Shown: positions 8,772-50,920, numbered from the stretch's first letter. The stretch: DNA of 64,000 nt from Bacteroidia bacterium (GCA_049115575.1 JAGDZU010000001.1:30851-94850), one strand, 5' to 3'. Notes: generated by a model from the letters alone, not told the origin. Made by a program: numbers and translations.

Positions 8772-9767
8772 ATGAGAATTAAGCTTAAAGCAATATCTTT
8801 TGTTGTAATCGCACTGCTTGGAGTAAGTGAGTTGAAGGCACAAGATCCTGAGTTTACGCAGTTTTTTGCTATACCGTTGTACACTAACCCTGCATTTGCG
8901 GGTACTGGTGCTTGTGATGGTGGAGGAAGAGCTGTTGTCAACTATCGCCAGCAATGGCCTAGTCTTCCAGGTACTTTTGTTACCACGGCAGCTAGCTACG
9001 ATCAGCATTTTGACAAAATTGGCGGTGGTATTGGTTTGGTATTTTTAGATGATAGAGCCGGTGAAGGACTTTTAACTTCAACTAGCATTTCAGCTATCTA
9101 CTCTTACCAATGGAGAGTTACTAAGAATTTTGCAATGCGCTTTGGAATTGAAGGCTCATACGGGCAGAGAAGCATTGACTGGTCTAGGTTGAGGTTTGAA
9201 GATCAGATTGATCCGACTTCAGGTTTCACTCAACAAACTGGTGAAACTTGGGAAACAGACCAGGTGAGTTTTGCGAATTTCTCAGCAGGGATGTTGGCAT
9301 ATACTTCTAATTTCTATGGGGGTGTAGCGGTTCACAATATTATTGAGCCAAATCAATCATTTTATGGAAATAAAGAGGCAACCATACCTATGAGATTTAC
9401 TGGGCATGGTGGGATTGTTGTGCCACTAGACGGAAAAAGGATTCCGGAAAGCACTATATCTCCAAATGTGCTCTTTATGATGCAAAACAAATTCACTCAA
9501 ATGAATATTGGATTCTACATGAACAAAGGACCTTTGGTTACTGGATTGTGGTTTAGACAAACGTTTGGGGAGTATGGAAACTCTGACGCTTTAATAGCTT
9601 TGGTAGGTTTCAGAAAAGATAAATTCAAATTTGGTTATAGTTACGATTTAACTGTTTCGGGGGCTAAATCAGCTGCTCCAGGGTCTCATGAAGTCTCTGC
9701 GGGCATTGAGTGGTGCGCAAGGAAAAGACCCATGAGGTACCGTAAACTCAGCTGTCCAGATTTTTAA
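8772..9767 (+). CDS. PorP/SprF family T9SS membrane protein
   Basis: The signal peptide is followed by the family-signature start QDPEFTQFFAIPLYTNPAFAG (compare DPxFSQY..NPL.LNPAxAG). 331 aa, the typical size. Confidence 0.7.
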   Translation: MRIKLKAISFVVIALLGVSELKAQDPEFTQFFAIPLYTNPAFAGTGACDGGGRAVVNYRQQWPSLPGTFVTTAASYDQHFDKIGGGIGLVFLDDRAGEGLLTSTSISAIYSYQWRVTKNFAMRFGIEGSYGQRSIDWSRLRFEDQIDPTSGFTQQTGETWETDQVSFANFSAGMLAYTSNFYGGVAVHNIIEPNQSFYGNKEATIPMRFTGHGGIVVPLDGKRIPESTISPNVLFMMQNKFTQMNIGFYMNKGPLVTGLWFRQTFGEYGNSDALIALVGFRKDKFKFGYSYDLTVSGAKSAAPGSHEVSAGIEWCARKRPMRYRKLSCPDF

Positions 9768-9839
9768 ATGCCCTGCTTTTTCACTATTATTGCACAATAT
9801 AAAAGATAAAATAAAGTTATATCAATTAGCTTAGAAATT

Positions 9840-11261
9840 ATGAGATTGAACAAACTAACTGTAGGAGTGATGGCCCTTTTATTCGTGGTTCCCACTTCTT
9901 GTAAGAAAGAACAATCGTCTACTACGGGGTGGAATTACAACGACTCTAAATGGGGAGGATTTGAAAAGCACGAATATGCAGGTCAGGAAACTGGTCCTGG
10001 TCTAGTGCTAGTCAAAGGTGGAACATTCACAATGGGTTCTTCTGAAAACGACGTCCTTTACGAACACGATAACATCGAGAGAAAAGTAACAGTTCCTTCA
10101 TTCTATATGGATCAAACGGAGGTTACTAATAATCACTACAGAGAATATGTATACTGGTTGCAAAGAGTTTATGTGGATTACCCTGAGGTAGCCATAAATG
10201 CTTTGCCAGATACATTGGTATGGAGAGATCGTTTGGCTTATAATGAGCCTTATGTAGAATATTACTACAGACATCCAGCTTATCAGGATTATCCTGTTGT
10301 TGGTGTGAACTGGAGACAAGCTACCCAATACGCTGCCTGGAGAACAGATCGTGTAAACGAAATGATCATGATTAGGGAAGGTATCTTGGAGCCAGATCCA
10401 AACCAAATGAACGAAGCTAACTTCAACACAGGAGCTTATTACGTTGCTCAAGACGATGGATTGAGACAAGGTAATAAGCAAATGAAGAACTACCGTACAA
10501 AAAAGGGATCTAGAAGAGTTCGCATGGAAGACGGTATTATGCTTCCAGATTACAGGCTGCCAACTGAAGCTGAGTGGGAATACGCTGCACAAGCTAATAT
10601 TGGAGCTTCAACTCATGAGAACATTAACAATAAAAAGATTTATTCTTGGGAAGGTTTGACTGTTCGTCACACTGGAGGAAAAGAAAAGAACAGAGGTTTG
10701 ATTAATGCCAATGTTAAAAGAGGAAAAGGTGACCAAGGTGGTATTGCTAGTCGTTTGAACGATAAAGGCTTTATTACTGTACCAGTTGGTTCTTACTGGC
10801 CAAATGATCACGGTCTATACAATATGAGTGGAAACGTTGCTGAGTGGGTGATGGATGTTTATCGTCCTTTATCTTATGAAGATGAGTCCGATTTCAACGC
10901 TTTCCGTGGCAACTACTTTGTTAAAAAGAAATTAGACGAAGATGGTGTTGTAGATTTAAAAGATAGCTTGGGTAGATTGGTTTATGTTCCAGTTACCGAA
11001 GAGGAAAACATTGGAAGAAGAAATTACAAAAAAGCTGATAATGTAGGGTACTTAGATGAGGTTGACTATATGGACGGGGAACAGGGTTATGAGTATGGAG
11101 TTACTACATTAATAGATAATCAAGCTAGAGTTTATAAAGGGGGTTCTTGGAATGACAGAATCTATTGGGCTTCACCAGGAACTAGAAGATGGTTGGATGA
11201 AGAGCAAGCTCTTTCTACTTTAGGATTTAGATGCGCCATGCACCGCGTGGGAGCACCTTGA
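9840..11261 (+). CDS. gldJ: GldJ/GldK-family gliding-motility lipoprotein (SUMF1/formylglycine-generating-enzyme fold), likely GldJ
   Basis: Lipoprotein signal (VPTSC lipobox) and an FGE-like domain (LVKGGTFTMGS ... RGGSWN). It is not followed by gldLMN and sits beside porU/porV, which matches the gldJ-porU-porV neighbourhood known in Flavobacterium. Confidence 0.55.
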   Translation: MRLNKLTVGVMALLFVVPTSCKKEQSSTTGWNYNDSKWGGFEKHEYAGQETGPGLVLVKGGTFTMGSSENDVLYEHDNIERKVTVPSFYMDQTEVTNNHYREYVYWLQRVYVDYPEVAINALPDTLVWRDRLAYNEPYVEYYYRHPAYQDYPVVGVNWRQATQYAAWRTDRVNEMIMIREGILEPDPNQMNEANFNTGAYYVAQDDGLRQGNKQMKNYRTKKGSRRVRMEDGIMLPDYRLPTEAEWEYAAQANIGASTHENINNKKIYSWEGLTVRHTGGKEKNRGLINANVKRGKGDQGGIASRLNDKGFITVPVGSYWPNDHGLYNMSGNVAEWVMDVYRPLSYEDESDFNAFRGNYFVKKKLDEDGVVDLKDSLGRLVYVPVTEEENIGRRNYKKADNVGYLDEVDYMDGEQGYEYGVTTLIDNQARVYKGGSWNDRIYWASPGTRRWLDEEQALSTLGFRCAMHRVGAP

Positions 11262-11273
11262 TAAACAAAGATT

Positions 11274-11309
11274 TAAAAAAAAAAGCCAGCTTAAAGCTGG
11301 CTTTTTTTG
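11274..11309. terminator. Bidirectional rho-independent terminator between gldJ-like (+) and the bacilliredoxin gene (-)
   Basis: An A-run, then the stem GCCAGCTT/AAGCTGGC, then TTTTTTT. Confidence 0.6.
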
Positions 11310-11326
11310 TGTGTATTTCTGAATTC

Positions 11327-11740
11327 TTAACAGAAAGTTTTGTAAGCTTCTTTAAGGTGATTGCTAATCATTTCAGCAGATCTTCCTTCAATATGATGAC
11401 GTTCAACAAAATGAACTAAATCACCATCCTTAAAAATAGCAATGCTAGGAGATGAAGGAGGGTAAGGTAAGAGATACTCTCTAGCTTTAGCTGTTGCGTC
11501 TGAATCTTGACCTGCAAATACAGTATATAAATGATCTGGTTTACTTTCTCCTGTTAATGAAGATAAGACACCAGGTCTAGCGCTACCTGCGGCACAGCCA
11601 CAGACACTATTTACAACAAGAACAGCAGTTCCGCTCATATTGTCAAAAGCTTTTGAAACCGATTCTTGGTCTTTCAATTCACTGAAACCATTGTTGGTTA
11701 ATTCAGCCCTCATAGGGCTTACTAATTCTTCTGGATACAT
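11327..11740 (-). CDS. Bacilliredoxin (BrxA/BrxB, YphP/YqiW, DUF1094 family thiol-disulfide oxidoreductase)
   Basis: 137 aa with the CGC redox motif (NSVCGCAAG) typical of the YphP/YqiW family. Confidence 0.6.
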   Translation of the reverse strand: MYPEELVSPMRAELTNNGFSELKDQESVSKAFDNMSGTAVLVVNSVCGCAAGSARPGVLSSLTGESKPDHLYTVFAGQDSDATAKAREYLLPYPPSSPSIAIFKDGDLVHFVERHHIEGRSAEMISNHLKEAYKTFC

Positions 11741-11842
11741 CTTAATAAATATTTATTGCAAATATGCAACAATATAGAACCTATTAATGTTTAGTAAATA
11801 CTAATTTTGCAAACTGAAAATTCTACAATGGAAGCACAAACT

Positions 11843-13135
11843 ATGAATTATAAAGTTAAAGACATTTCCTTAGCTAATTGGGGAAGGAAAGAAATAGCGT
11901 TAGCAGAAGCTGAAATGCCAGGTCTAATGTCTTTGAGAGAAGAGTATGGAAACAGCAAACCTCTTGCTGGGGCCCGTATTGCAGGATGTCTGCACATGAC
12001 AATCCAAACAGCAGTTCTTATTGAAACCTTAACTGAGCTGGGCGCGGAGGTTACATGGAGTTCATGTAATATCTTTTCTACTCAAGATCATGCCGCTGCG
12101 GCAATTGCTGAAACTGGAGTTCCAGTTTATGCTTGGAAAGGAATGAACGAAGAGGAATTTGACTGGTGTATAGAGCAAACTCTTTTCGCATTTGAGGGTG
12201 GAAAGCCTTTGAACATGATTTTAGATGACGGAGGTGATCTTACCAATATGGTGTTAGATAGATATCCAGAATTAGTAAAAGATATCCGAGGGATCTCTGA
12301 AGAGACCACAACGGGTGTGTTGAGACTATATGATAGAACCAAGGCTGGGAAATTGCCTTTGCCAGCAATTAATGTGAATGATTCAGTAACCAAGTCAAAA
12401 TTTGATAACAAATACGGATGTAAAGAAAGCGCTGTAGATGCTATTAGACGTGCTACAGATATTATGATAGCTGGTAAAGTTGCAGTTGTTGCTGGATATG
12501 GAGATGTAGGAAAAGGAACTGCTGCTTCATTAAGAGGTGCAGGAGCTAGAGTAATTGTTACTGAAATTGATCCTATATGCGCGTTACAAGCTGCCATGGA
12601 CGGCTTTGAAGTAAAGCCAATGGAGAAAGCGATACCGAGAGCTCAGATTGTAGTTACCGCAACTGGTAACAAAGACATTATAACTTCTACTCATTTTAAG
12701 AGTATGAAAGACAAAACCATAGTTTGTAACATTGGCCATTTTGACAATGAAATAGACATGGCTTGGATAGAAAGCAATCATGGTGATTCTAAATATACTG
12801 TTAAACCACAGGTTGATGTCTATAATGTAGATGGAAATGAAATCATTGTATTGGCTGAGGGTAGATTGGTTAACTTAGGATGTGCTACAGGCCATCCGAG
12901 TTTTGTGATGAGCAACTCTTTCACCAATCAAACTTTAGCTCAACTTGAACTTTGGACTAACGCTGATAAGTACGATAATCAAGTTTATGTACTACCGAAG
13001 CATTTAGATGAGAAAGTTGCTAGATTGCATTTGGCCAAAATAGGTGTTGAGTTAGAAACCTTAACGGAAGAGCAATCTACATATATAGGAGTAAAACCTG
13101 AAGGTCCTTACAAACCAGAACACTACAGATACTAG
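11843..13135 (+). CDS. ahcY: Adenosylhomocysteinase
   Basis: [30 protein letters not shown]-terminus and an NAD-binding GYGDVGKG motif. The ORF-track start at 11807 is an alternative start. TAATTTTG -7 motif at 11802-11809. Confidence 0.9.
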
Positions 13136-13157
13136 TATATATTAGCTAATTATAGAA

Positions 13158-13186
13158 AGGCTTGCCATTTGGCAGGCCTTTTTTAT
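13158..13186. terminator. Rho-independent terminator downstream of ahcY
   Basis: AGGCTTGCC-ATTT-GGCAGGCCT hairpin followed by TTTTTTATTT. Confidence 0.55.
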
Positions 13187-13899
13187 TTGATTCTTTTAAC
13201 ACCCGTTGTCCCTTGAGATAGGTAAATGGCATCAAAGCTTTCAATTTCGCTTGCTAGAATCGGTCGTTTAGTGAGTTGAAAGCCATATAAGGGCATCATA
13301 TATCTCAGACAGGTACCGTTCACATATCCTGAATTCGCTGGTGGAACAATCATTTCATCACCTTTTATACAGATGATATTACTGCTTAATTCTTCTATAA
13401 TTTCCCCATTTGAATTTGTTAGAAGCAGATAATCCAGTTTTTCTTCAACTTTATGTTTTGCAGCCAAAACATAGAAGGCAGAAGACAATGTTTTAACAGT
13501 AAATATGGGATGTGATGGTTTAGCGAGTTCGTAGATGCCAATGCTGCCTGCCTGTTTGGGGGCTTTCTGCAATTCAGCAAACAAATCAAGTTTGGCAGGA
13601 AGCCAAAACTCTGAGTTTGACGTTGCTGTCTCTATTTCGGTTGCGAAGCTATTATTAATAGGGGCGTATTTCCCTTCTCCCTCTCGGTAAAAGCTAATTC
13701 TAACAACATGGTCTGGATGTTTTTCTGGATTTATTATTTGACTTAACCATTCAGGTGTTGGCTCGAAATCAATCTCAAATTCAAATATGCTTATTCCATC
13801 TTTTATCCTAAGTAGGTGTTGATCAAGCAATGGAATATGCCCTTTGATAGTCCTTATAGATTCAAAAAAACCGTCTCCATACTTAAAACCTCTATTCAT
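13183..13899 (-). CDS. Aminotransferase class IV / aminodeoxychorismate lyase-like protein
   Basis: The N-terminal FKYGDGFFESIR and overall size resemble short Bacteroidetes PabC-like class IV fold proteins. Confidence 0.5.
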   Translation of the reverse strand: MNRGFKYGDGFFESIRTIKGHIPLLDQHLLRIKDGISIFEFEIDFEPTPEWLSQIINPEKHPDHVVRISFYREGEGKYAPINNSFATEIETATSNSEFWLPAKLDLFAELQKAPKQAGSIGIYELAKPSHPIFTVKTLSSAFYVLAAKHKVEEKLDYLLLTNSNGEIIEELSSNIICIKGDEMIVPPANSGYVNGTCLRYMMPLYGFQLTKRPILASEIESFDAIYLSQGTTGVKRIK

Positions 13900-14319: not shown

Positions 14320-16360
14320 AAGCTGGATTTAGCTCAGTCTTAGATTCTGTTATGTCGATTTCGGGTTCATAGCCAGGTGCAAAAGTCACAAAGTACATAT
14401 CAATTGCGCCTTTGTGCTTAGCTTCAATCTTTCCTCTATGTTCAAACTCAAACATAGGGTCGTCTTTAATGATGTTGTAAGTATCGCTGGATATGTTTAC
14501 GTGTCCTACCTTACCTGAAGATTCCATTCTAGCGGCTGTATTCACAGTATCTCCCCAAATGTCATATTGGAATTTCTTGACACCTACGATTCCAGCAACT
14601 GCTGATCCCGTGTGTATGCCAACCCTCATTTCAAATGCAATTTTGTCATCAGCATCCATGGCTGCTTTTCTTTCCGTGATAAATAGCTGCATTTCAAGCG
14701 CTGCCTGTACGGTATGGCTTACAGATCCGCTTTCTGGAACAGGTAGCCCACCAGCTGCCATGTATGCGTCTCCAATGGTTTTAATTTTTTCTACATTATA
14801 CTTCTCCATAATGCGGTCAAATGCTTCAAAACAAGCATTTATTTCCATTACTAATTCAGTCGCTGATAGTTTTTCAGATGTTTGTGTAAACTCTTTGAAG
14901 TCTGTAAATAGAATCGTCACCTTGTCGTGGTTCTTTGCTGCGGCAAATCCTTTTTCTTTTAGTTCCTTCGCTATCTCTTCGGGAAGAATGTTCAGTAATA
15001 ATTCATCCGATCGATCTCTTTCCTTTCTAATGATTTTTCTTGACTTTCTTACTACCCTTAGTTGTGCAAATAGACCACCAGCGATAATAAAGACGATTAG
15101 ACCGCCTATCATCATATAGTTTCTAATCTTAGTGGTTTTTTCAACTTCTGCTTTGTGTTCAAGTTCCGTTCTTAGGCGTTCTTCTTCTTTTTGAAGGCTG
15201 TCATTTCTGAACTTCACTTTTTGCATTTGAAGCTCCTTGGTGTGCTCTAACTTCTTGAGCATGTCTTCGGTCTGGTCAGAGGAAAGCTGATCGTTTAGCA
15301 TCATCATTCTTTCCATATAGGCTAATGCATAGTCTTCGTTGCCTTTGCGTTTATGAGACAAATAAAGACATTCGCAGGCATTGAATTGCTGTAGGGTAAG
15401 TTGTTGTTGTTCGCTGATTAAGTAACTTTTTTCGCACCATTCTATGGCTTTGTCGTACTTCTTGAATTTAATATTTACATCACCAATGTTGGTTTGAGAT
15501 ATACTCATTCCTTTTTTGTCATTATTGGCCTCCTGTAACTTTAAACATCGCTTGAAGTAATCTTCTGCCTTGCTGTATTCTTCAGCTCTATTAAAAAGGT
15601 TTCCTAGGTTATTGAGCGCAGTTGCTTCTCCAATTTGGTCCCCTAGCCCTTGGTAAAGGCTTAAGCTTTTATTGTAGTACTCCATAGCTTTAGCACCATT
15701 GCCAAGTTTGCTATAAACCATACCCATATTGTTGTTAGACGAGGCTATGCCAGATTTGTTATCCATTTTTTCGTCTATTGCAAGGCTCTTGCTGAAGTAA
15801 TCTAACGCTTCTTCGTTCTTATTCTGCAATGAGTATACAGAACCAATATTGGAGTAGGTAACTGCCAAGCCGGCCTGATCATCTATTTCCAATTTGATGG
15901 TTAAGCTTTCTAGGTAATGCTCTAGGGCTTTCGGATAATCTCCTAAGTTGTCGTATACAGTTCCTACATTATTATGTGAGCTTGCGATGCTTGCTTTAAC
16001 CTTAGATTCTCGGGCGATGTCAAGACTAGCCATGTAATGATTCAGGGCTTTGATGTAAGCGGTCTCTACATAGTAAGTGCCTCCTATTATAGTATGGGCT
16101 TCTATTTGGTGGTTAATTAAGTTGTGCTCAATGGCCATGCCTAGGACTGCTGTTGCTATATTTCTACTTGAGTCCGGATGGCTATAAAGCAAGTTTCTTG
16201 CTAGCTCTTCAGCTGCTTCCAATCTGTCATCATCACCCAGTTCAATGTTATTCCAGTCTTTGAGAAGTTGCTCATTGCTCTGGCCTTTGGCTTCAGAAAT
16301 AAATAATAAAGTACTACACAGAAAAAAGCTTAGAAACAGGCTGCGTCTTGTCGATTTCAT
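14318..16360 (-). CDS. Class III adenylate/guanylate cyclase with an N-terminal periplasmic TPR-repeat sensor region and a single TM helix
   Basis: Signal peptide, multiple TPR-like repeats (NLGNLF.., NIGSVY..), a TM segment (MMIGGLIVFIIAGGLFA), a coiled coil, then a cyclase domain (KIKTIGDAYMAAGGLP; GIHTGSAVAGIVGVKKFQYDIWGDTVNTAARMES). Confidence 0.8.
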   Translation of the reverse strand: MKSTRRSLFLSFFLCSTLLFISEAKGQSNEQLLKDWNNIELGDDDRLEAAEELARNLLYSHPDSSRNIATAVLGMAIEHNLINHQIEAHTIIGGTYYVETAYIKALNHYMASLDIARESKVKASIASSHNNVGTVYDNLGDYPKALEHYLESLTIKLEIDDQAGLAVTYSNIGSVYSLQNKNEEALDYFSKSLAIDEKMDNKSGIASSNNNMGMVYSKLGNGAKAMEYYNKSLSLYQGLGDQIGEATALNNLGNLFNRAEEYSKAEDYFKRCLKLQEANNDKKGMSISQTNIGDVNIKFKKYDKAIEWCEKSYLISEQQQLTLQQFNACECLYLSHKRKGNEDYALAYMERMMMLNDQLSSDQTEDMLKKLEHTKELQMQKVKFRNDSLQKEEERLRTELEHKAEVEKTTKIRNYMMIGGLIVFIIAGGLFAQLRVVRKSRKIIRKERDRSDELLLNILPEEIAKELKEKGFAAAKNHDKVTILFTDFKEFTQTSEKLSATELVMEINACFEAFDRIMEKYNVEKIKTIGDAYMAAGGLPVPESGSVSHTVQAALEMQLFITERKAAMDADDKIAFEMRVGIHTGSAVAGIVGVKKFQYDIWGDTVNTAARMESSGKVGHVNISSDTYNIIKDDPMFEFEHRGKIEAKHKGAIDMYFVTFAPGYEPEIDITESKTELNPA

Positions 16361-16725
16361 ATTAGGATTAGTTCAGCCGCTAACATACAAAAATATTTTT
16401 CAGTTTATTGAAACTATAGTTCCTATAATTGGACTAAAATCTATAAAGGAGACAATAGGCCATATTCGGAAATTAGTGTTCGTGGCAAATATGCATCCAA
16501 TAAATCTTTATATCTATCACAAAACCAGTTAGATACAAATGATTGTTATGAATTTGGATGCTCATTGGCATAAGACTTGAACTCATTTATTCAGTTATGT
16601 TATTTGAATAAACCGACTGATCAATGCATAAAGCCATAATCAGTAGATTATATAAATACGCTTAACTACTATTATTTATTAACCATTAGTACTAACTATT
16701 CAACCTTTAAAGGTTTTACGTTTCA

Positions 16726-16795: not shown

Positions 16796-19700
16796 ATGAT
16801 CAGTACCGAAGTATATATTCCTAAGAACAAGGTAAGAATTGTTACAGCAGCTTCTTTGTTCGATGGTCACGATGCGGCAATCAATGTGATGCGTCGTATT
16901 ATTCAATCTACAGGGTGTGAAGTTATCCATCTTGGGCACGACAGAAGTGCTGAAGAAGTTGTTGATACGGCTATTCAAGAAGATGCAAATGCCATCGCCA
17001 TGACCTCCTATCAAGGTGGGCATATGGAATATTTTAAATATATGTATGACCTCCTTAAAGAAAAAGGGGCCAGCCATATTAAAATCTTTGGAGGAGGTGG
17101 TGGAACTATTCTGCCTTCGGAGATCAAAGAATTACAGGAGTATGGAATTGCTCGGATATATCATCCTGATGATGGCAGAGAAATGGGCCTACAAGGTATG
17201 ATTAATGATTTAGTAGAAAAGGCTGATTTTCCTACCGGTTACTCATTGAATGGAGAACTAGAATCGTTTAAAACAGGAGATAAGATGTCTATTGCCAAGG
17301 TGATCTCAGCTGCTGAAAATTACCCTGATGAGCATGTTGGAAGCCTAAAGATTATAGAAAAGGAAGCTGATCAAATTCATACACCGATATTAGGTATTAC
17401 CGGCACTGGAGGAGCTGGTAAGTCAAGTCTAGTTGACGAACTAGTTAGAAGATTCTTGCTAGATTTCGAAGATAAAACCATTGCCATCATCTCAGTAGAT
17501 CCATCTAAAAGAAAAACAGGAGGTGCACTTTTGGGTGATCGAATTCGCATGAACAGTATCAGGAACGAGCGCGTTTATATGCGATCGTTGGCAACAAGAC
17601 AAGCAAATTTGGCACTGTCTAAACATATAGATACAGCCATTGATATTCTTAAAGTTGCGGGCTATGATTTAATCATTTTAGAAACATCTGGTATTGGCCA
17701 GAGTGATACAGAGATTACCGACCATTCTGATGTGAGCCTGTACGTTATGACTCCTGAATATGGAGCTGCTACTCAACTCGAGAAGATTGATATGCTTGAC
17801 TTTGCAGACCTAATTGCAATTAACAAGTTTGATAAAAGAGGTGCTCTAGACGCTTTAAGAGATGTAAAAAAACAGTTTCAACGAAACAATAAACTGTTTG
17901 ATGCTGATGTTGAAAGCATGCCAGTTTATGGTACAATAGCTTCCCAATTCAATGATCCTGGAGTGAATTCTTTGTACTCAAGACTCATAGAAACCATTAA
18001 TCAGAAGAAAGATGCAGGATTGCCTTCTGGTGCTAAGGAGGAAACTGATTTATCAGAGAAGATCTATATAATTCCTCCCAAAAGGATTAGGTACTTATCA
18101 GAGATTGCTGAAAATAATAGAGCGTATGATGAGTGGGTTGAAAAACAAGCCAAAATAGCCCAAAAGCTCTACGGGATTAGAACAACCATAACTACTCTAG
18201 AAGAAGAAAAAGATGGAGATCACCAAGTGGTTATAGAGCAGCTGCAAACCAGCTATAAGAAGTTATCACTTGATTTTGATCCTAAACTGCAGATACTGTT
18301 AGATGAATGGGGTCAGGTAAAAGAAGATTATAATAACGACATCTATACTTATTTAGTTAGAAACAGAGAGATTAAAGTGGAAACCAAATCACTTTCTCTT
18401 TCTCATCAAAAAATTCCAAAGGTCTCCTTGCCAAAATACGAGGCGTGGGGAGACGTGTTGAAATGGAATTTGCAAGAGAATGTGCCAGGCAAGTTTCCAT
18501 ATACCGCAGGAATCTACCCTTTCAAAAGAGAAGGGGAGGATCCTACTCGAATGTTTGCAGGTGAAGGTGGTCCAGAAAGAACCAATAAGCGATTCCATTA
18601 CTTGAGTTTAGAAATGCCAGCCAAAAGATTGTCAACTGCATTTGATTCCGTAACTCTTTATGGCAACGATCCTGACTACAGGCCAGATATATATGGGAAA
18701 ATAGGTAATGCAGGTGTTTCAATTTGCTGTCTTGACGATGCTAAAAAGCTTTACAGTGGATTTAATCTAGCAGACCCAAAAACTTCCGTGTCCATGACAA
18801 TAAATGGACCAGCCCCTATGTTGCTGGCGTATTTCATGAATGCAGCTATAGACCAACAATGTGAGCTTTACATTAAAGAACAAGGACTTGAAAAGGAAGT
18901 TGCTGCAAAAATTGAGAAGTATTTTGCAAATAAGGGAAGTAAACAGCCCCAATACAATGGAGATCTTCCTGAAGGGAATGACGGTCTTGGTTTAATGCTA
19001 CTAGGCCTGACCGGAGACAAAGTGTTAGATGCAGAAACCTACGCTAATATAAAAGCAGAAACTTTAAAGCAGGTTAGAGGAACGGTTCAGGCAGATATTT
19101 TAAAAGAGGATCAGGCTCAAAATACATGCATATTCTCAACCGAATTTGCACTGAGGTTGATGGGTGATGTACAGCACTATTTCATAGATAATGGGGTAAG
19201 GAATTTTTATTCAGTTTCAATATCGGGTTACCATATAGCAGAAGCCGGAGCAAATCCAATTACCCAATTGGCGTTCACTTTAGCCAATGGTTTTACTTAT
19301 GTAGAGTACTACCTAAGTAGAGGTATGGACATAAATCAATTTGGTCCGAACCTGAGTTTCTTCTTTTCAAATGGAATTGATCCTGAATACGCGGTTATTG
19401 GAAGGGTGGCAAGACGAATATGGGCAAAAGCCATGAAATTAAAATATGGAGCCGATCCAAGAGCTCAGATGCTGAAATACCACATACAGACATCGGGTAG
19501 AAGTTTGCATGCTCAAGAAATTGATTTCAATGATATAAGAACTACTCTCCAAGCATTGTACGCTATATATGACAACTGCAATTCGCTACATACCAATGCA
19601 TATGATGAGGCTATTACCACTCCAACGGAAGAGTCGGTAAGGCGAGCAGTTGCTATTCAACTTATTATTAATAGAGAACTGGGATTGGCTAAAAATGAGA

Positions 19701-28849: not shown

Positions 28850-29251
28850 TTACATGGGATGACAATGGAAAAGTATAGTTTTAGTCTCTTTGTCGCCCTC
28901 ATGATTTTTGTCTATGGTAATTGTAAGTACCATATCACTGTGACTGTTTACATCATTGACCCACATTTCATGAATGTGGAACATTAAACCATCTTCATGT
29001 GCATGTTTGTTAAAAACCTCCGTGTTGTTATTTGAGGTGTTCACTAAACTTATTTCGTAACCGTGCATCTCCATATCTGCGGAGATCATACCGTTAATAT
29101 ATACGGTATCACCTTGACCATACATGGTACTAGCAACAGGTTCTGCAAAGTTTATAGTGATATCATTTTGAGGATTCATGCTCTCATCTTCTTTACAGGA
29201 CGACAACATAAGAAAAGTTAAAGCCAATATTGATATAAGTGTTTTATTCAT
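28850..29251 (-). CDS. His/Met-rich lipoprotein (putative periplasmic metal-binding protein)
   Basis: Lipobox (LSSC) and motifs MISADMEMHGYE, HIHEMW and HCHPM, reminiscent of Cu(I)/metal-binding periplasmic proteins. Confidence 0.45.
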   Translation of the reverse strand: MNKTLISILALTFLMLSSCKEDESMNPQNDITINFAEPVASTMYGQGDTVYINGMISADMEMHGYEISLVNTSNNNTEVFNKHAHEDGLMFHIHEMWVNDVNSHSDMVLTITIDKNHEGDKETKTILFHCHPM

Positions 29252-30186
29252 TTTTTAGATTTTTTATTGATGAAGTATAGTAATTGAATTCTTGAACTGA
29301 GTTTAGGTGTTACATAGCCTTCTGATATTTCGTAGGCAAAAGGAATTTCAGTATTGAACCTAAAACCAAATGATTTGATATATAAATCTAGGCCCAGGAT
29401 TCCACTCCACTGTTCTTTGCCACTGTATTGCTTCTCTATATTCAAGGAAGTGTAAGCAATGTCTTTATTAAAGTGTTGATATGATAGACCCACTTGAGGT
29501 ATCAATGTCTGTTTCATAAACCTCTTTTGAGTAAATCCAATAATTTTACTGTTGAATCTGTTTCCGAACTTAAATTCATTGCTGTTAGCTCCATTCAAGC
29601 TATAATAAAGTTCATGATTGAGACCGAATTGCTTGCTTCTCAATGAGAAGTTCGAAGCGAGTTGAGCGTCCCAAGATCCACTGCCCAGCATCATATTCTG
29701 TATTTGTTGACCATCAAGATTGTTGTTGGTGGCACCGGTTGGCATTTTAAGCCCGGCACCAACGAGCCAGAACAATTGTGTCTTACTATTGCTCGTGCCT
29801 CTTCGCCAAAGTCCGTAATAGGTTTGAATGGAAGCATCTCCTAAACCGTTGATAGATTTAGAGGAATAGCTAGCACCTGGGCTCATGTTGATACTGTTGG
29901 CCTTATAAGGTACCGATGCAGTAATCATCCAGCGATCTTTCAAGAAGTATCTCATCCATAGGTCGACAGTTTGGAAATGATCCTTGCTGTATTGAGCATC
30001 CATGCCTGGCATAGGTGGGTGATCTGTTCTAAAGCTGCTGATGCTGTAGTTAATACCTATGATATGTCTTTTTTGGAGAGGTATGTAACCAAAGCCCATG
30101 TTCATGCCTGATCCACCACATACATCGCAGGCGAGTATAGGTACGGCCAATAGCGCAAAGGCTATTGTAAATATGTGTTTTTTCAT
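29248..30186 (-). CDS. Outer-membrane beta-barrel protein with an N-terminal CxxC (CDVCGG) motif
   Basis: Signal peptide, CDVCGGSG immediately after the predicted cleavage site, a beta-barrel-like alternating pattern, 312 aa. Confidence 0.45.
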   Translation of the reverse strand: MKKHIFTIAFALLAVPILACDVCGGSGMNMGFGYIPLQKRHIIGINYSISSFRTDHPPMPGMDAQYSKDHFQTVDLWMRYFLKDRWMITASVPYKANSINMSPGASYSSKSINGLGDASIQTYYGLWRRGTSNSKTQLFWLVGAGLKMPTGATNNNLDGQQIQNMMLGSGSWDAQLASNFSLRSKQFGLNHELYYSLNGANSNEFKFGNRFNSKIIGFTQKRFMKQTLIPQVGLSYQHFNKDIAYTSLNIEKQYSGKEQWSGILGLDLYIKSFGFRFNTEIPFAYEISEGYVTPKLSSRIQLLYFINKKSKK

Positions 30187-30218: not shown

Positions 30219-30587
30219 TTAAACCAATGTTCGAGGGGGGTGAAAGATTCCTTGAGGATCTTTAGAAAGAATCTTATAGTCAACCCATGGGGCCATAGGT
30301 TTCAATATTTCTTGTTGAAAATTTGGCTGGTCAGTGGTCATTACAAATTGGAGTAGCTTCATTACCAATAATTCTGGATTTTCAGCATTCTGATTGTTTT
30401 GATCCAATTTCATGGTCTTTTGTAGCACGCAATTTCCATTACACTCCAATTCTTTCTTCTCTCTGTTCTCACATAGTTCTTGAACTATATAAGAACGTTC
30501 TACTCCATACCAAACTAAAGTAGATAGATTAATAATAAACCCGGAGGAGATTACCAATGTTAGGAATATGGCTGTCAGCAATTTCAA
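30219..30587 (-). CDS. Hypothetical membrane-anchored small protein with a C-x9-C-x3-C motif
   Basis: N-terminal TM helix and CENREKKELECNGNC; the first gene of a three-gene minus-strand operon. Confidence 0.35.
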   Translation of the reverse strand: MKLLTAIFLTLVISSGFIINLSTLVWYGVERSYIVQELCENREKKELECNGNCVLQKTMKLDQNNQNAENPELLVMKLLQFVMTTDQPNFQQEILKPMAPWVDYKILSKDPQGIFHPPRTLV

Positions 30588-34441: not shown

Positions 34442-34939
34442 ATGAAGAGACGACTAATTAAATCAACACTCCTGATAGGAGCTCTGGTTATTTTAAGCAC
34501 AGTTTCAGCTCGTGCGCAAGCTTTGCAAAGACAATCGATTGGTTTTATAGGTGGATCCACCGATTTTACTCAAGGATTGTTTGTTCAATCGATAGTTGGG
34601 CAGCCCTATTCCTTGACTCCATCTTCCTTTGATTCATATTATGTAAATCCTGGATTCGAACAAAGTGCTCTAGTGCAAACAGCACCTCTTGAATTAGAAA
34701 TCAATACCCTCATTTATCCCAATCCAGCAAATGCCACTTTAAATATAGAAGTAGATGTAGCAGATGTAAGAATGTCTATTATGGATCTTCATGGAAGATC
34801 CGTTTACCATGCAGAACTTGCTGAAAACCAAATTCATAATGTAGACTGTAAGAACTGGTCGGCAGGAACATATTTTGTACTTTTTTTTAAGAACGATCAC
34901 CAAATACAAGCTTCAAAGCTTGTTATAGCACACCAATAA
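34442..34939 (+). CDS. Small secreted protein with a T9SS type A C-terminal sorting domain (Por_Secre_tail)
   Basis: Signal peptide (MKRRLIKSTLLIGALVILSTVSARAQ) and a C-terminal CTD (LIYPNPANATLNIEV ... GTYFVLF ... KLVIAHQ). Only about 60 residues of passenger lie between them. TAGCTTTG -7 motif at 34340-34347. Confidence 0.6.
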   Translation: MKRRLIKSTLLIGALVILSTVSARAQALQRQSIGFIGGSTDFTQGLFVQSIVGQPYSLTPSSFDSYYVNPGFEQSALVQTAPLELEINTLIYPNPANATLNIEVDVADVRMSIMDLHGRSVYHAELAENQIHNVDCKNWSAGTYFVLFFKNDHQIQASKLVIAHQ

Positions 34940-34940
34940 A

Positions 34941-35570
34941 ATGAAACAATATTTATCATATTTAAGCATTGTCCTTTTGCTTCTAATAGGAGCAAATGAA
35001 TCAAAAGCGCAATTGAGATTAACAGTGGAAGCTTCCCAGTTTAGCTCAAATTTCCTTTTCACAGATAGTGATGGAGAACGGGATAACAACTATACGGCTA
35101 AGCTAACCGGAGCTTATAGAGTTGGTTACCAAGTAAAATGGAATAGTGGAATTTATTTTAGGAATTCTATTGGGATTCGTAAAGCTGGCGCCACTTATGA
35201 ATTTAATGGAATTAATAATGATTGGGATTTACAATATGTTGAATTCCAGTTGGGACTTGGTTATATGAAGTATATGGAATCAATTGGAGTTTATATAGCC
35301 GTATCTCCATATTATGCTCATTTAACTAGAGGAAATCAGAGGTTAAGCGGAATCAACTATAATCTGGTTAATTCAGATAACTTTAATGTAAATGAGATTG
35401 GAGTGACTGCACGAGGAGGATTGCTCATTGATCTATCTGAGCAACTCGATTTGAATGTTGGGGTTTCATTCCTTAGAGGATTCACAAACCTTGAACTTGA
35501 AGATAATGGGCAAATAACAAATAGTCAATCTATGGGATTTGACTTGGGATTAGCATTTAAAATTGATTAA
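34941..35570 (+). CDS. Small outer-membrane beta-barrel protein (8-strand OmpW/PorT-like size)
   Basis: Signal peptide, 209 aa, alternating hydrophobic strands, C-terminal LGLAFKID; 1-nt gap from the preceding gene. Confidence 0.5.
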   Translation: MKQYLSYLSIVLLLLIGANESKAQLRLTVEASQFSSNFLFTDSDGERDNNYTAKLTGAYRVGYQVKWNSGIYFRNSIGIRKAGATYEFNGINNDWDLQYVEFQLGLGYMKYMESIGVYIAVSPYYAHLTRGNQRLSGINYNLVNSDNFNVNEIGVTARGGLLIDLSEQLDLNVGVSFLRGFTNLELEDNGQITNSQSMGFDLGLAFKID

Positions 35571-35573
35571 GAA

Positions 35574-38423
35574 ATGAAAAAGATTGTATTTAAATTTACT
35601 GTACTATCCTTAGTGCTTGGGTTCAGTTTTATAGCCCATGGACAAACTAGACCTCCTTTAGAAGGAATAAGCTATCAAGCGGTGATTCTTGATACTGAAG
35701 GTCAGGACCTAGTTGGTGTAGATGCCACTGGACTGCCTTTGCACAAACGAACAATAACTTTAAAGTTCACAATTACAAGTGGAAACAATGGGCCTGTCTA
35801 TTATGAGGAAACTCATTCCACTGCAACAGATCCTTATGGGCTTGTTTCTGTTGTAATTGGTAAGGGCAACTTATCGGGTCAGGGCCAGTTTACAGATTTA
35901 ATGGATTTGCCTTGGAATTTGGTGGATCAATGGTTGATAGTAGGGGTAGATGTTAACAACGATGGAGTTTTCTCAGTATTGAGTAATCAAAAATTCATGG
36001 CTGTACCTTTCGCTTATTATGCAGATAGAATTTCTGATAATTCTATTGGATCTGAACAAATACTAGATGAGTCAATAACTGCTAACGACATAGATACGGG
36101 AGCGGTAACCACTTCTGAGATTTTGGACGAAACCATCTTAGCAGAAGACATTGCCACTGGAGCAGTATCCTCAGATGAGATTTTGAACGAAACCATCTTG
36201 GCTGAAGATATTGCTACTGGAGCGGTAACTACAGATGAGATTCTGAACGAAACCATCTTAGCAGAAGACATTGCCACTGGAGCGGTAACTACAGATGAGA
36301 TTCTGAACGAAACCATCTTGGCTGAAGATATCGCCACTGGAGCGGTAACTACAGATGAGATATTGAACGAAACCATCTTGGCTGAAGATATTGCCACTGG
36401 AGCGGTAACTACAGATGAGATTTTGAATGAAACCATCTTGGCTGAAGATATCGCCACTGGCGCAGTAACTACAGATGAGATTCTGAACGAAACCATCTTG
36501 GCTGAAGATATCGCCACTGGAGCGGTAACTACAGATGAGATTTTGGACGAAACCATTACGGCTGATGATATTGGTCCTGGTGCTGTTACAGGTGATGAAA
36601 TTTTAGACGAGTCAATTACTGCGGACGACATAGACACAGGAGCCGTAACAACATCCGAAATCTTAAACGAAACCATTTTGGCTGAAGATATCGCCACTGG
36701 CGCTGTAACTACAGATGAGATCTTGGACGAGACCATCTTGGCAGAAGACATTGCCACAGGTGCGGTAGAGACTTCAGAGATTTTGAATGAAACCATTTTA
36801 GCGGAAGATATTGCCACAGGAGCAGTAGAGACTTCGGAGATCTTGAATGAGACCATCTTGGCAGAAGACATTGCCACAGGTGCGGTAGAGACTTCAGAGA
36901 TCTTGAATGAGACAATCTTGGCAGAAGACATCGCGACTGGAGCGGTTGAGACTTCGGAGATCTTAAATGAAACCATACAAGCTGAAGATATAGATACAGG
37001 CGCAGTAACAACCTCAGAAATCTTGGATGAAACTATTTTAGCTGAGGATATTGCAAGTGGAGCGGTGACTACAGATGAGATCTTAGATGAAACAATTCAA
37101 GCTGAAGATATAGATACGGGTGCTGTCACAACTTCTGAAATCTTGAACGAAACTATACTAGCAGAAGATATTGGAACGGGTTCCGTAGAAACTTCAGAGA
37201 TATTGGATGAGACCATTCTAGCGGAAGATATCGCTACTGGTGCTGTAGAGACCTCAGAGATTTTGGATGAGACCATCTTGGCGGAAGACATCGCTACAGG
37301 AGCAGTAGAAACTTCGGAGATTTTAGATGAGACCATCTTGGCGGAAGATATCGCTACTGGAGCAGTAGAAACTTCGGAGATTTTAGATGAGACCATTTTA
37401 GCAGAAGACATTGCTACTGGAGCAGTAGAGACCTCAGAGATTTTGGATGAGACCATTCTAGCGGAAGATATCGCTACTGGTGCAGTAGAGACCTCAGAGA
37501 TTTTGGATGAGACCATCTTGGCGGAAGACATTGCTACTGGTGCAGTAGAGACCTCTGAGATATTGGATGAGACCATTTTAGCGGAAGATATCGCTACTGG
37601 TGCAGTGGAGACTTCTGAAATCTTAGATGAGACCGTTTTGGCGGAAGACATCGCTACAGGAGCAGTAGAAACTTCTGAAATCTTAGATGAGACGATCTTG
37701 GCAGAAGATATCGCTACAGGTGCAGTAGAGACCTCTGAGATATTGAATGAGACCATTCTAGCGGAAGACATTGCTACTGGAGCAGTGGAGACTTCTGAGA
37801 TATTGGATGAGACCATTATGGCCGGAGATATCGCTACGGGTGCTGTTACGTCTTCAGAGATTCTTAACGGAACTATAGTGAATGATGATATTGCCGATGG
37901 AACAATTGATGCTTCGAGCAAACTTAATGGTGTTGTTCCCGTTTCTATTGGAGGTACTGGTCGTTCTGATGTAAGCTCTGGAAGCTTAGTTGTAGGCAAC
38001 GGCACAGCTCCTCTTGGAACTCTTCCGGTTAATGATTCGATTATGGTGATTACTAATATTTCGGGTACAACTGAGCTTTATAAAGTAACAGCAGGTCTTC
38101 GTACTTTCTTGAATATTGACACAGTGAATAAGACCATAGAGATTTCAGCTATAGACCAAAGCGGTGGTCCAAATACAGGGACAGGTTCTGTATCCGTTCC
38201 AAATTTAAGTCCAGGTGATCAGGTTGAACGTAACTTTCCATCTTCAGGTGTGGAAATTGGTGACATAATTCTAGCAACTTTGGACACAGACCTAGAAGGA
38301 CTGACCTTGACCGCCTATGTGAGACAAAATGGGCAAGTACGGGTTATTTTCTACAATGGATCCAATCAAAATGTGAACCTTGGACCGGTGAATGTGAGTT
38401 TTGCCAATTTTGGTCAACCGTAA
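35574..38423 (+). CDS. Secreted, highly acidic tandem-repeat protein: about 31 copies of a 20-aa unit (consensus sEILdETILAEDIATGAVet) between unique N- and C-terminal domains of about 150 aa each
   Basis: Signal peptide, in-frame 60-bp DNA periodicity across roughly 1.86 kb, unique termini, and no T9SS CTD. Confidence 0.7.
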   Translation: MKKIVFKFTVLSLVLGFSFIAHGQTRPPLEGISYQAVILDTEGQDLVGVDATGLPLHKRTITLKFTITSGNNGPVYYEETHSTATDPYGLVSVVIGKGNLSGQGQFTDLMDLPWNLVDQWLIVGVDVNNDGVFSVLSNQKFMAVPFAYYADRISDNSIGSEQILDESITANDIDTGAVTTSEILDETILAEDIATGAVSSDEILNETILAEDIATGAVTTDEILNETILAEDIATGAVTTDEILNETILAEDIATGAVTTDEILNETILAEDIATGAVTTDEILNETILAEDIATGAVTTDEILNETILAEDIATGAVTTDEILDETITADDIGPGAVTGDEILDESITADDIDTGAVTTSEILNETILAEDIATGAVTTDEILDETILAEDIATGAVETSEILNETILAEDIATGAVETSEILNETILAEDIATGAVETSEILNETILAEDIATGAVETSEILNETIQAEDIDTGAVTTSEILDETILAEDIASGAVTTDEILDETIQAEDIDTGAVTTSEILNETILAEDIGTGSVETSEILDETILAEDIATGAVETSEILDETILAEDIATGAVETSEILDETILAEDIATGAVETSEILDETILAEDIATGAVETSEILDETILAEDIATGAVETSEILDETILAEDIATGAVETSEILDETILAEDIATGAVETSEILDETVLAEDIATGAVETSEILDETILAEDIATGAVETSEILNETILAEDIATGAVETSEILDETIMAGDIATGAVTSSEILNGTIVNDDIADGTIDASSKLNGVVPVSIGGTGRSDVSSGSLVVGNGTAPLGTLPVNDSIMVITNISGTTELYKVTAGLRTFLNIDTVNKTIEISAIDQSGGPNTGTGSVSVPNLSPGDQVERNFPSSGVEIGDIILATLDTDLEGLTLTAYVRQNGQVRVIFYNGSNQNVNLGPVNVSFANFGQP
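36061..37920 (+). repeat. In-frame 60-bp tandem repeat array (about 31 units) within the 949-aa CDS
   Basis: Direct inspection shows units differing almost exclusively at synonymous codon positions. Two sub-families are present, a ...TTDEILNETIL... block and a ...ETSEILDETIL... block. Confidence 0.9.
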
Positions 38424-41279: not shown

Positions 41280-42131
41280 TCACAGATTATAGGTCAATGC
41301 AAACTTGAATCCGTCTATTTGAATGTCCTCATTGGGTTCTGCAGCATTCCATTCAGGATAGCTTTGATTGAGAACGAAATTTTTAAATATTCCAAGTTCT
41401 AATGAAATAGTCTTCTTGTTTTCCAGAACAAAGGCAAAACCCTGACCTATTCCAATGCCCAAACTGCTTACCACATTTTTTATGTTCTCATCTCCAGTTT
41501 CAAATGGGAAGGGTGCAGGAGGGTTTGAATCATTCACGCTATAATTGGTATAACCAGACCACCGATTAAAATAGAGGTCAATAGGTACATACAGCGCTAG
41601 ATTTCGTTTATAACCGTCATATTGATGCTGGTATCTAAATCCTGCATTCAAATAATTCACAGACTCCAATAGCAGGCCAATTTCAACTTGTGCGCCGAGA
41701 TAATGCTCACGGCCTCTGTATTGTCCAAAGCCTGCCTTCAAAGAGACTGGGATATCGTTGACAACATCCGGAGCGTTCAGGAAATAATCATCTTCAATGA
41801 GGTTTGGTCTCCAATTGAACATAGCTATGCTCGTTCCCACTGAAACTTGCCATCCTTCTGTTCTTCTTTCCTTGACTATGACTGTATCACGATTTCTAAC
41901 GCGGTATGCCTGATCTTCTACAAAGTATTCATAGTCCTGAGCAGTTAAGAAAAACTTCCTACCGGCAGGGTCTACAATTGTTAAGTCACCATCAGTTCCG
42001 TCAAAAAGAATGATTTCTCCTTTTATAACTCTTCCATCGGTCAATTTGACCAAGTCATAAGTCTTTATTTCTTGGGCCAATGCTGTGACTGCAACGGCTA
42101 ATAAGCTTAGTATGGTAGTTTTTAAACGCAT
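41280..42131 (-). CDS. Hypothetical secreted/outer-membrane protein
   Basis: Signal peptide, beta-rich, C-terminal aromatic residue. Confidence 0.35.
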   Translation of the reverse strand: MRLKTTILSLLAVAVTALAQEIKTYDLVKLTDGRVIKGEIILFDGTDGDLTIVDPAGRKFFLTAQDYEYFVEDQAYRVRNRDTVIVKERRTEGWQVSVGTSIAMFNWRPNLIEDDYFLNAPDVVNDIPVSLKAGFGQYRGREHYLGAQVEIGLLLESVNYLNAGFRYQHQYDGYKRNLALYVPIDLYFNRWSGYTNYSVNDSNPPAPFPFETGDENIKNVVSSLGIGIGQGFAFVLENKKTISLELGIFKNFVLNQSYPEWNAAEPNEDIQIDGFKFALTYNL

Positions 42132-49147: not shown

Positions 49148-50920
49148 CTATCTCACTTGAAATTTACCACGTCTAATCTCAGGACCAGACTCTAAGTTAA
49201 GTATATACTGCCCGGGCTCTAGCATAGAAACATCAATAGTGTTGAGTGTGCCTCGAAACTCTTGCTGAATAACGGTTTGTCCTTGAAGATTAAGAATAGC
49301 CCATCTATCAATAATTAATGGATTATCTCTTCTAAGATGAAGAAGGTCATGAGTGGGATTAGGGAACAATTCTAGATTGCTCTCGACTATTCCTTTAGCA
49401 GACAATGGGTGGACATATATATTAATAAATAATATGTCGTCAGCTGCAGGACAAAATGCTCCAACTCCCGTTGAAACGGAGACAAGAAATCGTCCGAAAC
49501 TATCTATACTGTTGATAGGAATTGAGATGATCACACTGTCTTGGTCTATGGAATTGAACGTAGCTGCTCCTCCAGTTAAAGATACAATATTCCATGTTAA
49601 AGGATATAGTAAATGTGCTGCAGAATATCTTAGCTGAACGTTCAATGTGTCAAGTGATTTAGAAACGTAATAGTGTCTTTCTTGCCCTAAGATATCTACA
49701 AAGGGTGCAGGTTCAACTTTAGTTTTGATATTAAACTCACCTATGCAGCCTGTACTAGGATCTACACCGCTATGGTAAGTAATCAAAATATCTTCATTGA
49801 ATTTGCTAGCTTTATTTGGCTTAAATATACCATTTTCAACTGCTGGAGTGTCGTTGCATGACCAAAATGAATTTGACCAATTTGGAGAAGCTAAGAGAGT
49901 AATGTCTGGGTCACTACTACAATAAAAAGGGTCAATAGGGTTAATAATGGATTGTTGACCATTTTGAATAACTAATGTAGTATCTCTATAGCTCCAACAA
50001 CCAGTTGCACGATGATTAAATCTTAATCCAAATGCTTTTGGGTATTGAACTGTTGAAGGTGTAGAATTTCGTGTATTGATAAGTGAGCTATCATTGATGC
50101 CACCCAGTTCCTTCGCATCTCTTAGGTTCCATCCATCGCGGGTTGTCCAGAATCCATCAACCCAATTCACATCGAATAAATCATTTAAGTCAATTTCTCC
50201 TTCACTCCAACACAAATCTCTTCCAGCACTAAACCATATTTCCGGTGCATGCCATATTTCAAAACTGACGGTATCTACATTTTTACAGCCATATTGGTTT
50301 ATAAATGTAAACTCCAATACAACAGTATCTCTAGTCAAGTTTTTTAAAGTATAATGAGCTTTATCTACATTCAACCAATAATTGGGTATAGAGGTAGGTG
50401 AACGATCTTCAAGCATATTGTTGAAGTTGTTCCCATTGCATTCTACGCATTCCCAAGAAGGTGTGCCGAGATTAATTCCTGCAGGAGAAGGTCTTTTAAG
50501 TAATTCACTTGATAAATGTATTTCATTAATGTCTTGACAAAAGATTTTGTCTTTAAATTCAATTTGAGGTAGTGGATTGACAGTTACGTACATGCTGTCA
50601 GATTTCATTATGCCATTTTTAAAAGCTTGAATAACAAAGGTTACTCTATTCACAAAAGAAGCAGCATAAGTAAAAGCATTAATAGATAGTGTTGAATCAG
50701 TTTCCTTTAGCGAGTCTCTTTTAGAATAGGTCTGAATATACCACTTCAATGAATCTGCAGGCCCGTTGTTAGTATTTACCATAAGGGTAAAAGAATCGTT
50801 TGCACAGACATCAAAATCCGGCGGAAGGGAAATGGAGAATTGCGCTTGACTTAGTAGAGCAGAAAGACCAAATAGGGCTAGTAAGGCAAACCGCATATGG
50901 ATTGTTTGTAAAATTAACAA
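49148..50920 (-). CDS. Secreted protein with a T9SS type A C-terminal sorting domain
   Basis: Signal peptide and a C-terminal [14 protein letters not shown] ... GQYILNL ... KFQVR CTD. Confidence 0.6.

Follow-up and report, generated by a model that had tools for sequence, protein, structure and literature searches.

A chromosomal gene trio of the Bacteroidota that probably builds a phage-tail-fibre-like surface fibre, with its own outer-membrane barrel and a small type IX secretion cargo

The stretch of Bacteroidia bacterium DNA analysed here (64,000 nt; GCA_049115575.1, JAGDZU010000001.1:30851-94850; hereafter the window) carries three consecutive genes on the plus strand, for a small putative type IX secretion system (T9SS) cargo, an outer-membrane beta-barrel and a long, acidic, repetitive fibre protein, which we refer to as P1, P2 and P3. 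The original prediction, made from the sequence alone, had described three open reading frames (ORFs) packed with gaps of 1-3 nt, and our ORF calls agree, leaving 1 nt between P1 and P2 and 3 nt between P2 and P3 (Table 1). The P1 gene has an alternative in-frame ATG upstream, at 34382; the ATG at 34442 gives a canonical signal peptide, MKRRLIKSTLLIGALVILSTVSARA, followed by Q. In all three proteins a Gln stands directly after the predicted cleavage site, behind ARA, SKA and AHG, respectively, as is typical of exported proteins of the Bacteroidota. P2 is 100% identical to NCBI entry JXR19_00300, from a metagenome-assembled genome labelled 'Bacteroidia bacterium', and exact-sequence look-ups for P2 and P3 returned no match. 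The cassette is flanked by sucC, Sua5 and YjeF on one side and by an M13 peptidase gene beyond the trio, with no phage genes, and a promoter and terminator scan of the locus gave counts no higher than those from shuffled sequence.

Table 1. Positions of the three genes and of their parts, counted from the first nucleotide of the window. CTD, C-terminal sorting domain; AF2, AlphaFold2; TRF, Tandem Repeats Finder.
Feature	Position	Strand	Basis
P1, whole gene including stop; 165-aa mini T9SS type-A cargo	34442..34939	+	ORF call; PF18962; TIGR04183
P1 signal peptide, residues 1-25, predicted cleavage before Q26	34442..34516	+	read from sequence; Q26 invariant in alignment
P1 passenger, residues 26-85	34517..34696	+	conservation of family motif
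P1 T9SS type-A CTD, residues 91-165	34712..34936	+	matches to PF18962, TIGR04183 and PDB CTD profiles
P2, 209-aa 8-stranded outer-membrane beta-barrel; signal peptide residues 1-23, Q24 at +1	34941..35570	+	ORF call; AF2; Foldseek
P3, whole gene including stop; 949-aa fibre protein	35574..38423	+	ORF call
P3 signal peptide, residues 1-23, ending FIAHG before Q; no lipobox Cys	35574..35642	+	read from sequence
P3 constant N-terminal beta-sandwich, residues 24-159; MAT-N-like, presumed cell-proximal	35643..36050	+	HMMER; AF2; NF053851
P3 shaft, residues 160-779; 31 x 20-aa acidic repeats of tail-fibre type	36051..37910	+	TRF; register; PHROGs
P3 C-terminal tip, residues 780-949 (170 aa); presumed binding tip	37911..38420	+	common to fibres of about 30 other loci

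P3 consists, behind its signal peptide, of a constant N-terminal domain (hereafter the N-domain), a repetitive shaft and a C-terminal tip. TRF reports a 60-nt period in 28.9 copies at 36111-37843 (score 1080), and in the protein the repeat runs to 31 perfectly in-register 20-aa units, with the consensus TSEILDETILAEDIATGAVE. Each unit holds four to seven Asp or Glu residues, no Lys or Arg, and hydrophobic pairs every five residues, and the isoelectric point (pI) of the whole protein is 4.05; the original prediction had read the repeat in much the same way, as about 31 units with about five acidic and no basic residues and a very low pI. Against Pfam at E<=1, P3 gave only noise. Pentapeptide, RTX, collagen and ice-nucleation repeats were each considered for the shaft and rejected because no corresponding Pfam repeat matched, which bears out the earlier statement that the repeat is not of the last three kinds. 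The sole PDB sequence match, to the 10-aa repeat region of Legionella DotG/IcmE (residues 307-468, E 0.0011), is unconvincing as a relationship and reflects a common 5/10-residue periodicity.

The repeat and the terminal domains had been thought to belong to no known family, which does not hold for the shaft or for the N-domain. Against the PHROG profiles the shaft matches phrog_892 (E 3.8e-54) and gives five more strong matches, phrog_21412 and phrog_28766 among them, and a tblastn search recovers 58 phage records (31-33% identity over 180 aa) whose annotation is tail fibre, host specificity protein J or minor tail protein; protein J of roseophage DSS3_VP1 and the tail fibre of cyanophage S-TIM5 both contain the P3-type repeat. 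The shaft repeat of these phage proteins is homologous to that of P3. For the tip, neither Pfam nor the PDB nor the phage collections gave a match. Relatives of P3 differ in how many repeat units they have, and homologues that share its tip mostly measure only 350-550 aa. As had been proposed for a protein secreted without a T9SS CTD, P3 matched neither the type-A profile PF18962 nor the type-B profile PF13585; the CTD profile was likewise matched by none of 93 fibres of the family (0/93), and no CTD was found in the fibre C-termini from 10 loci without a detected full P1-barrel-fibre arrangement.

Within the repeat array two ORFs can be called on the opposite strand (36017-36976 (-), 319 aa; 37097-38005 (-), 302 aa), both of them repetitive (SKISEVSTAPVAMSSAKMV). 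They are by-products of the 60-nt periodicity, and we therefore regard them as artefacts and not as genes. The nearest relative for which a long contig is available (locus L001; ENA ERZ25071423) has a fibre of roughly 40 repeat units, against 31 here, and its P1 and fibre genes are each split by frameshifts (9425-9954, 10578-13560), which reflects either misassembled repeats or pseudogenisation.

The N-domain defines a large family. An exhaustive HMMER search recovered 7,971 representatives of 50%-identity clusters at E<=1e-3 and 992 at E<=1e-10; a word-indexed search with the same domain found one fragment only. Among the matches listed, the domain directly follows the signal peptide in 150 of 150 proteins, which range from 141 to 2,953 aa in length. 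Its AF2 model is a seven-stranded beta-sandwich with a predicted local distance difference test score (pLDDT) above 90 in the core, and the profile found no homologue in the PDB. A single NCBIfam model, NF053851 (Bdello_MAT_N), was matched by all 31 aligned members of the family (31/31), with a best E of 4e-12 and every score below the curated cutoff of 60 bits; the P3 domain alone scores 32.5 bits (E 7e-8) and the whole protein 25.8 bits. Because all scores lie under that cutoff, P3 is a remote relative of the MAT proteins and not a member by the NCBI rule.

MAT (mosaic adhesive trimer) fibres have been described, in 2024, from Bdellovibrio bacteriovorus only (Caulton et al., 2024, PMC10769870). 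Strain HD100 has 21 MAT genes, Bd2133, Bd2439, Bd2734, Bd2740, Bd1334 and Bd3182 among them. The proteins start with a signal peptide and a conserved beta-rich N-domain (about 130 aa), continue in a trimeric shaft of phage-like build and end in swappable tips; they fall into S74 and non-S74 subgroups, and their N-domain, which has no PDB homologue, must bind a surface element awaiting identification (PMC10769870). P3 has the same order of parts, with a signal peptide, a beta-rich N-domain of about that length, a long shaft like that of phage fibres and a C-terminal tip that can be exchanged, and the two families are also alike in having both S74 and non-S74 members and an N-domain with no homologue in the PDB. 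What follows the N-domain in relatives of P3 is variable: in some it is the acidic repeat seen here, and elsewhere collagen triple helices or DUF7151, PKD_6, Fib_succ_major, Lcl_C, GLUG or Peptidase_S74 domains are found in its place. The family is thus a mosaic in the manner of the MAT proteins, with exchangeable shafts and tips on a constant N-domain, and P3 itself is of the non-S74 kind. The collagen triple-helix stalks found on the same N-domain, together with the kinship to MAT, suggest that the P3 fibre would be trimeric; by analogy with MAT fibres it would also be exposed at the cell surface.

P3 differs from the MAT fibres in its host phylum, in the sub-cutoff score of its N-domain, in a shaft that is a near-perfect acidic 20-aa array, and in its genetic linkage to an 8-stranded barrel of its own and, in most cases, to a T9SS mini-cargo; for Bdellovibrio neither partner is mentioned (PMC10769870 and its supplements). 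On these comparisons P3 is most aptly called a MAT-like fibre of the non-S74 kind, belonging to a remote branch in the Bacteroidota. The original prediction had proposed an undescribed surface appendage; because the shaft matches phage fibres and the N-domain is remotely related to MAT-N, we would instead see a new branch of a kind of fibre already described.

P2 had been described as a signal-peptide protein of 209 aa and the size of an 8-stranded barrel, and structure prediction agrees: the AF2 model, built on a 51-sequence alignment, has eight long strands and a pLDDT of 87.4, and its Foldseek neighbours are the transmembrane domain of OmpA, Ail, NspA, OmpW and OmpX (E 3.8e-8 to 1e-4, TM-score up to 0.70). 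P2 itself has no Pfam match at E<=1; among 55 homologues, 32 match PF13505 (OMP_b-brl) and 19 match PF13568. Neither P2 nor any of these 55 homologues matches PF11751 (PorP_SprF), a family of about 300 aa, and P2 has no POTRA, OmpA_C or other periplasmic domain. P2 is, by its monomer model, a closed 8-stranded barrel of the OmpA/OmpX class. The strand tips and loops that presumably face the outside show about the same conservation as the mid-strand, membrane-spanning positions (2.14 and 2.25 bits, respectively), which lends weak support to a docking role for the outward face. Most of the long 'P2' ORFs that adjoin a fibre gene have only N- or C-terminal extensions, mostly of low complexity.

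P1 had been proposed to combine a signal peptide and a type-A CTD with a passenger of only about 60 residues, and the profile searches concur. Residues 91-162 match PF18962 (Por_Secre_tail) with E 2.9e-13 and 50.3 bits against a cutoff of 27, and the match to TIGR04183 scores 34.7 bits against a cutoff of 23; PF18962 is also matched by each of 57 P1 homologues in the same cassette position (57/57). With a CTD above cutoff at its C-terminus and a Sec signal peptide, the latter read from the sequence, P1 has the marks of a type-A CTD cargo, and its secretion by the T9SS is predicted. The passenger, of about 60 residues between signal peptide and CTD, has no Pfam or PDB match (the P1 profile finds only solved CTDs in the PDB), and it contains a motif, Q-[ST]-I-x-R-[QS]-x-I-x-S-x-G ... 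Q-T-x-G-Q ... G-F-Q-Q-P, that is kept across the 57 homologues. Elsewhere in the window, at 49148-50920 (-), lies a gene for a 590-aa protein of ordinary cargo size with a type-A T9SS sorting domain (PF18962, E 2.1e-8), which shows a T9SS in use in this organism and gives circumstantial support for secretion of P1 by that route.

The linkage of the three genes was followed in 80 loci from species-representative genomes, retrieved with the N-domain profile and scored with iterated hidden Markov models and our own ORF calls. These loci span Flavobacteriales, Bacteroidales, Chitinophagales, Cytophagales and Saprospiraceae. The cultured strains Aestuariivivens marinum MT3-5-12 (L011) and Seonamhaeicola aphaedonensis CECT 8487 (L012) carry the trio. 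P1, P2 and fibre genes stand in the same order and on the same strand in 56 of the 80, with gaps mostly below 40 nt; 11 have barrel and fibre, seven have P1 and fibre (two of these in the order barrel-P1-fibre), and six have the fibre only (two of these without upstream sequence). From one locus to the next the flanking ORFs show no relation (mean pairwise share 0.4%), so that the linkage does not depend on context. In close relatives the trio is present as well, with sucC, Sua5, YjeF and M13 peptidase genes around it as here, and for this reason its presence there proves little by itself. A second set was seeded with the barrel and comprised 39 metagenome loci, found with a tight barrel alignment, and loci from three database look-ups. 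An N-domain fibre was the next gene downstream in 39 of the 39 barrel-seeded loci with enough downstream sequence, and P1 lay upstream in 36 of 41; overall, P1 stands beside a CTD-less fibre in about 70-85% of cassettes.

Paralogous cassettes, whether in tandem or dispersed, each keep their own barrel, and the pairwise identities of N-domain and P2 co-vary (rho 0.75, uncorrected for phylogeny). The original prediction had looked to conservation of the trio in other Bacteroidota genomes as a check on whether it is a functional module, and the synteny described above speaks in its favour: because the arrangement persists across orders with unrelated flanks, we consider a dedicated module well supported by gene order. 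From the locus tallies, the barrel-fibre pair is the invariant core and P1 a frequent but dispensable member. Neither the trio nor its repeat can be put down to chance, given the TRF score of the repeat and the more than 90 independent loci in which the trio is conserved.

Several loci depart from a single copy of the trio. Tandem duplication of the whole cassette (P1-P2-fibre twice) is seen in L027 (2731-5557 and 6736-9320) and in L110 (4469-7295 and 8690-10608); in L027 the duplicate barrels and N-domains are about 83% identical and the P1 copies 54.5%. Five loci (L010, L061, L062, L063 and L076) have two tandem N-domain fibre genes behind a single P1 and/or barrel, or with none detected, and partners may therefore be shared in some genomes. 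In the Aquirufa-type loci L085-L088 an AraC/HTH_18 regulator gene is followed by one for a 198-aa barrel and one for a fibre of about 2,700 aa, with no P1; the neighbours in L085 include a CHU_C cargo, a PorP_SprF barrel and an OmpA-domain gene. L021, a 1.7-kb contig with barrel and fibre that was binned as Steroidobacteraceae, bears the sole non-Bacteroidota label among the 80 loci, and its gammaproteobacterial assignment is probably a binning error.

Close to the cassette in the window are three ORFs for signal-peptide or membrane proteins without a Pfam family at E<=0.01, at 29248-30186 (-), 30219-30587 (-) and 41280-42131 (-). The 312-aa ORF near the cassette has a counterpart of the same size (312 aa) in L001; the 283-aa ORF has none there, where a 780-nt gene (15609-16388) is followed directly by a 1413-nt gene (16983-18395). 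Both the 312-aa and the 283-aa neighbour proteins look beta-rich and may be outer-membrane proteins.

Taken together, the trio is most readily understood as a self-contained chromosomal Bacteroidota cassette that builds a phage-tail-fibre-like, MAT-type surface fibre, with P2 as its dock and P1 as an accessory, a reading to which we would give a probability of about 0.6. After Sec export, P3 would present its constant N-domain at the cell surface, with the acidic repeat shaft and, at the far end, the C-terminal tip, presumably for binding a target. P2, the invariant partner, would most likely be the membrane-embedded dock that holds the fibre N-domain; the strict co-occurrence of the two genes and the presence of one barrel per paralogue point to such docking, as does, weakly, the conservation of the outward face. 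P1 would most likely be a small accessory subunit that the T9SS brings to the surface, its conserved passenger becoming part of the fibre base, and it could serve there as an adaptor, as a lock or as an in-trans secretion signal for a fibre without a CTD. Both the contact between P1 and the fibre and the route across the outer membrane are parts of the model that we infer.

A number of observations weigh against this reading. The seven loci with P1 and fibre have no barrel match, or only a weak one, immediately upstream of the fibre gene, and the contrast in conservation between the faces of the P2 barrel is small. Fusions of P1 with P2, which we sought as evidence of contact, were not found, and all protein-protein contacts in the model are inferred. 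The match of P3 to MAT-N, besides being sub-cutoff, spans only part of the profile. P1 is absent from some cassettes (those of the Aquirufa type and the 11 of 80 with barrel and fibre) whose fibres have no CTD of their own, and the model does not account for how a CTD-less fibre crosses the outer membrane.

This last point bears most directly on a sharper version of the favoured model, in which P1 is the export device itself: its passenger would bind the folded fibre base in the periplasm, its CTD would carry the complex through the T9SS, and P2 would anchor the fibre afterwards. The combination of a Sec signal with no CTD in any of the family members examined, the conserved passenger of the near-passenger-less CTD protein that adjoins the fibre in most cassettes and the presence of another T9SS cargo in this genome all fit such a role. 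Cassettes without P1 nevertheless occur in T9SS lineages, as in Aquirufa locus L085 with its PorP_SprF and CHU_C neighbours, and because the fibres of P1-less cassettes carry no CTD in cis, P1 cannot be a universal export signal. Bdellovibrio MAT fibres, moreover, reach the surface independently of any T9SS, and we found no precedent for T9SS hitch-hiking in the PMC and bioRxiv literature searched, so that we hold this version to be possible but on the whole unlikely. Less likely still, P1 would be a small T9SS product in its own right, for instance a signalling or surface peptide, sharing no more than a transcript with a functional pair of barrel and fibre. Its absence from a minority of cassettes, the faster divergence of its paralogues in L027 and the existence of small CTD proteins with roles of their own (PorA and Fjoh_0547) would suit such a product; its unvarying, closely spaced place upstream of the barrel in the different orders does not, nor does a passenger motif so specific to this context that its sole match in the whole window is the copy in the cassette.

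The original prediction had also considered the barrel as an exporter, in the sense of two-partner or inverse-autotransporter-like translocation of the fibre. The strict pairing of barrel and fibre would be expected of such a system, and an N-terminal anchor with a C-terminal tip is the polarity of inverse autotransporters. P2, however, is a closed barrel of OmpA/OmpX/Ail size with no POTRA or periplasmic domain; 8-stranded barrels of this size have no polypeptide channel, and known type V translocators have 12-16 strands, with POTRA domains in addition in TpsB. Being an OmpA-size barrel with eight strands and no extra domain, P2 was rejected as a type V translocator, and we think export by P2 very improbable. 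Since the shaft repeat matches tail-fibre PHROGs and annotated phage fibre proteins, we also weighed whether P3 is a tail fibre of a prophage or tailocin with incidental neighbours. Against this stand its Sec signal peptide, the sucC, Sua5, YjeF and M13 peptidase genes around it, the retention of the trio in unrelated chromosomal contexts, and an N-domain and tip for which 2.9 million IMG/VR contigs, 50,697 phage genomes (INPHARED) and BFVD gave no match. With a cellular N-domain and tip, housekeeping neighbours and a Sec signal, a prophage origin was rejected, and we give it hardly any credence.

The favoured model, with P2 as dock and P1 as accessory, resembles several known systems in part. 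Phage tail-fibre, host-specificity and minor tail proteins share the shaft repeat, whereas the N-domain and tip of P3 are not found in phages and P3 is Sec-exported from a chromosomal, non-phage context. PorP/SprF barrels have been proposed to anchor T9SS type-B CTD cargo, as in the pairs PG1035-PorP and SprB-SprF (Gorasia et al., 2022, PMC9143113). In these systems, too, a surface protein gene lies beside that of a cognate outer-membrane barrel, but P2 is 8-stranded and OmpA-like without PF11751, and the CTD in the cassette is of type A and sits on a separate mini-protein, not on the fibre. Small non-enzymatic T9SS CTD proteins include PorA of P. gingivalis (246 aa) and Fjoh_0547 of F. johnsoniae (112 aa) (PMC7712824); like P1, they combine a type-A CTD with a signal peptide and a very short N-terminal part, while the P1 passenger of about 60 aa has its own motif, matches no solved structure and is tied to a fibre cassette. 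P2 in turn has the fold and size of the OmpA transmembrane domain, OmpX, Ail, NspA and OmpW, and differs from these OmpA-class barrels in being too divergent for Pfam, strictly coupled to a fibre gene and devoid of an OmpA_C periplasmic domain. We found no description of the cassette in the PMC and bioRxiv literature searched, and the MAT paper and its supplements make no mention of Bacteroidota (PMC10769870). The class of fibre is thus known, and we found its Bacteroidota branch, with the dedicated barrel and T9SS mini-cargo, nowhere described.

If the favoured reading is right, P2 provides a concrete, testable candidate for the anchor of a MAT-class N-domain, the element that the MAT paper leaves to be identified, and a likely role is suggested for thousands of 'hypothetical' barrels and tiny CTD proteins. 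The cassette also raises the question of how fibres without a CTD exit Bacteroidota cells. As a tentative extension, which we consider unlikely at present, the small barrel could be the surface receptor of the MAT-type N-domain and P1, in most Bacteroidota, a detachable in-trans T9SS signal or base-plate subunit, such that a folded trimeric fibre without a CTD is both exported and mounted by hitch-hiking; if true, this would be an undescribed mode of T9SS use and an undescribed system for mounting fibres. Finally, because the tips are swappable (collagen stalks, lectin-like, Fib_succ_major and S74 ends), these fibres are plausible determinants of adhesion, of attachment to particles or prey and of interactions with phages, and may plausibly matter in these respects for marine, freshwater, soil and gut Bacteroidota.

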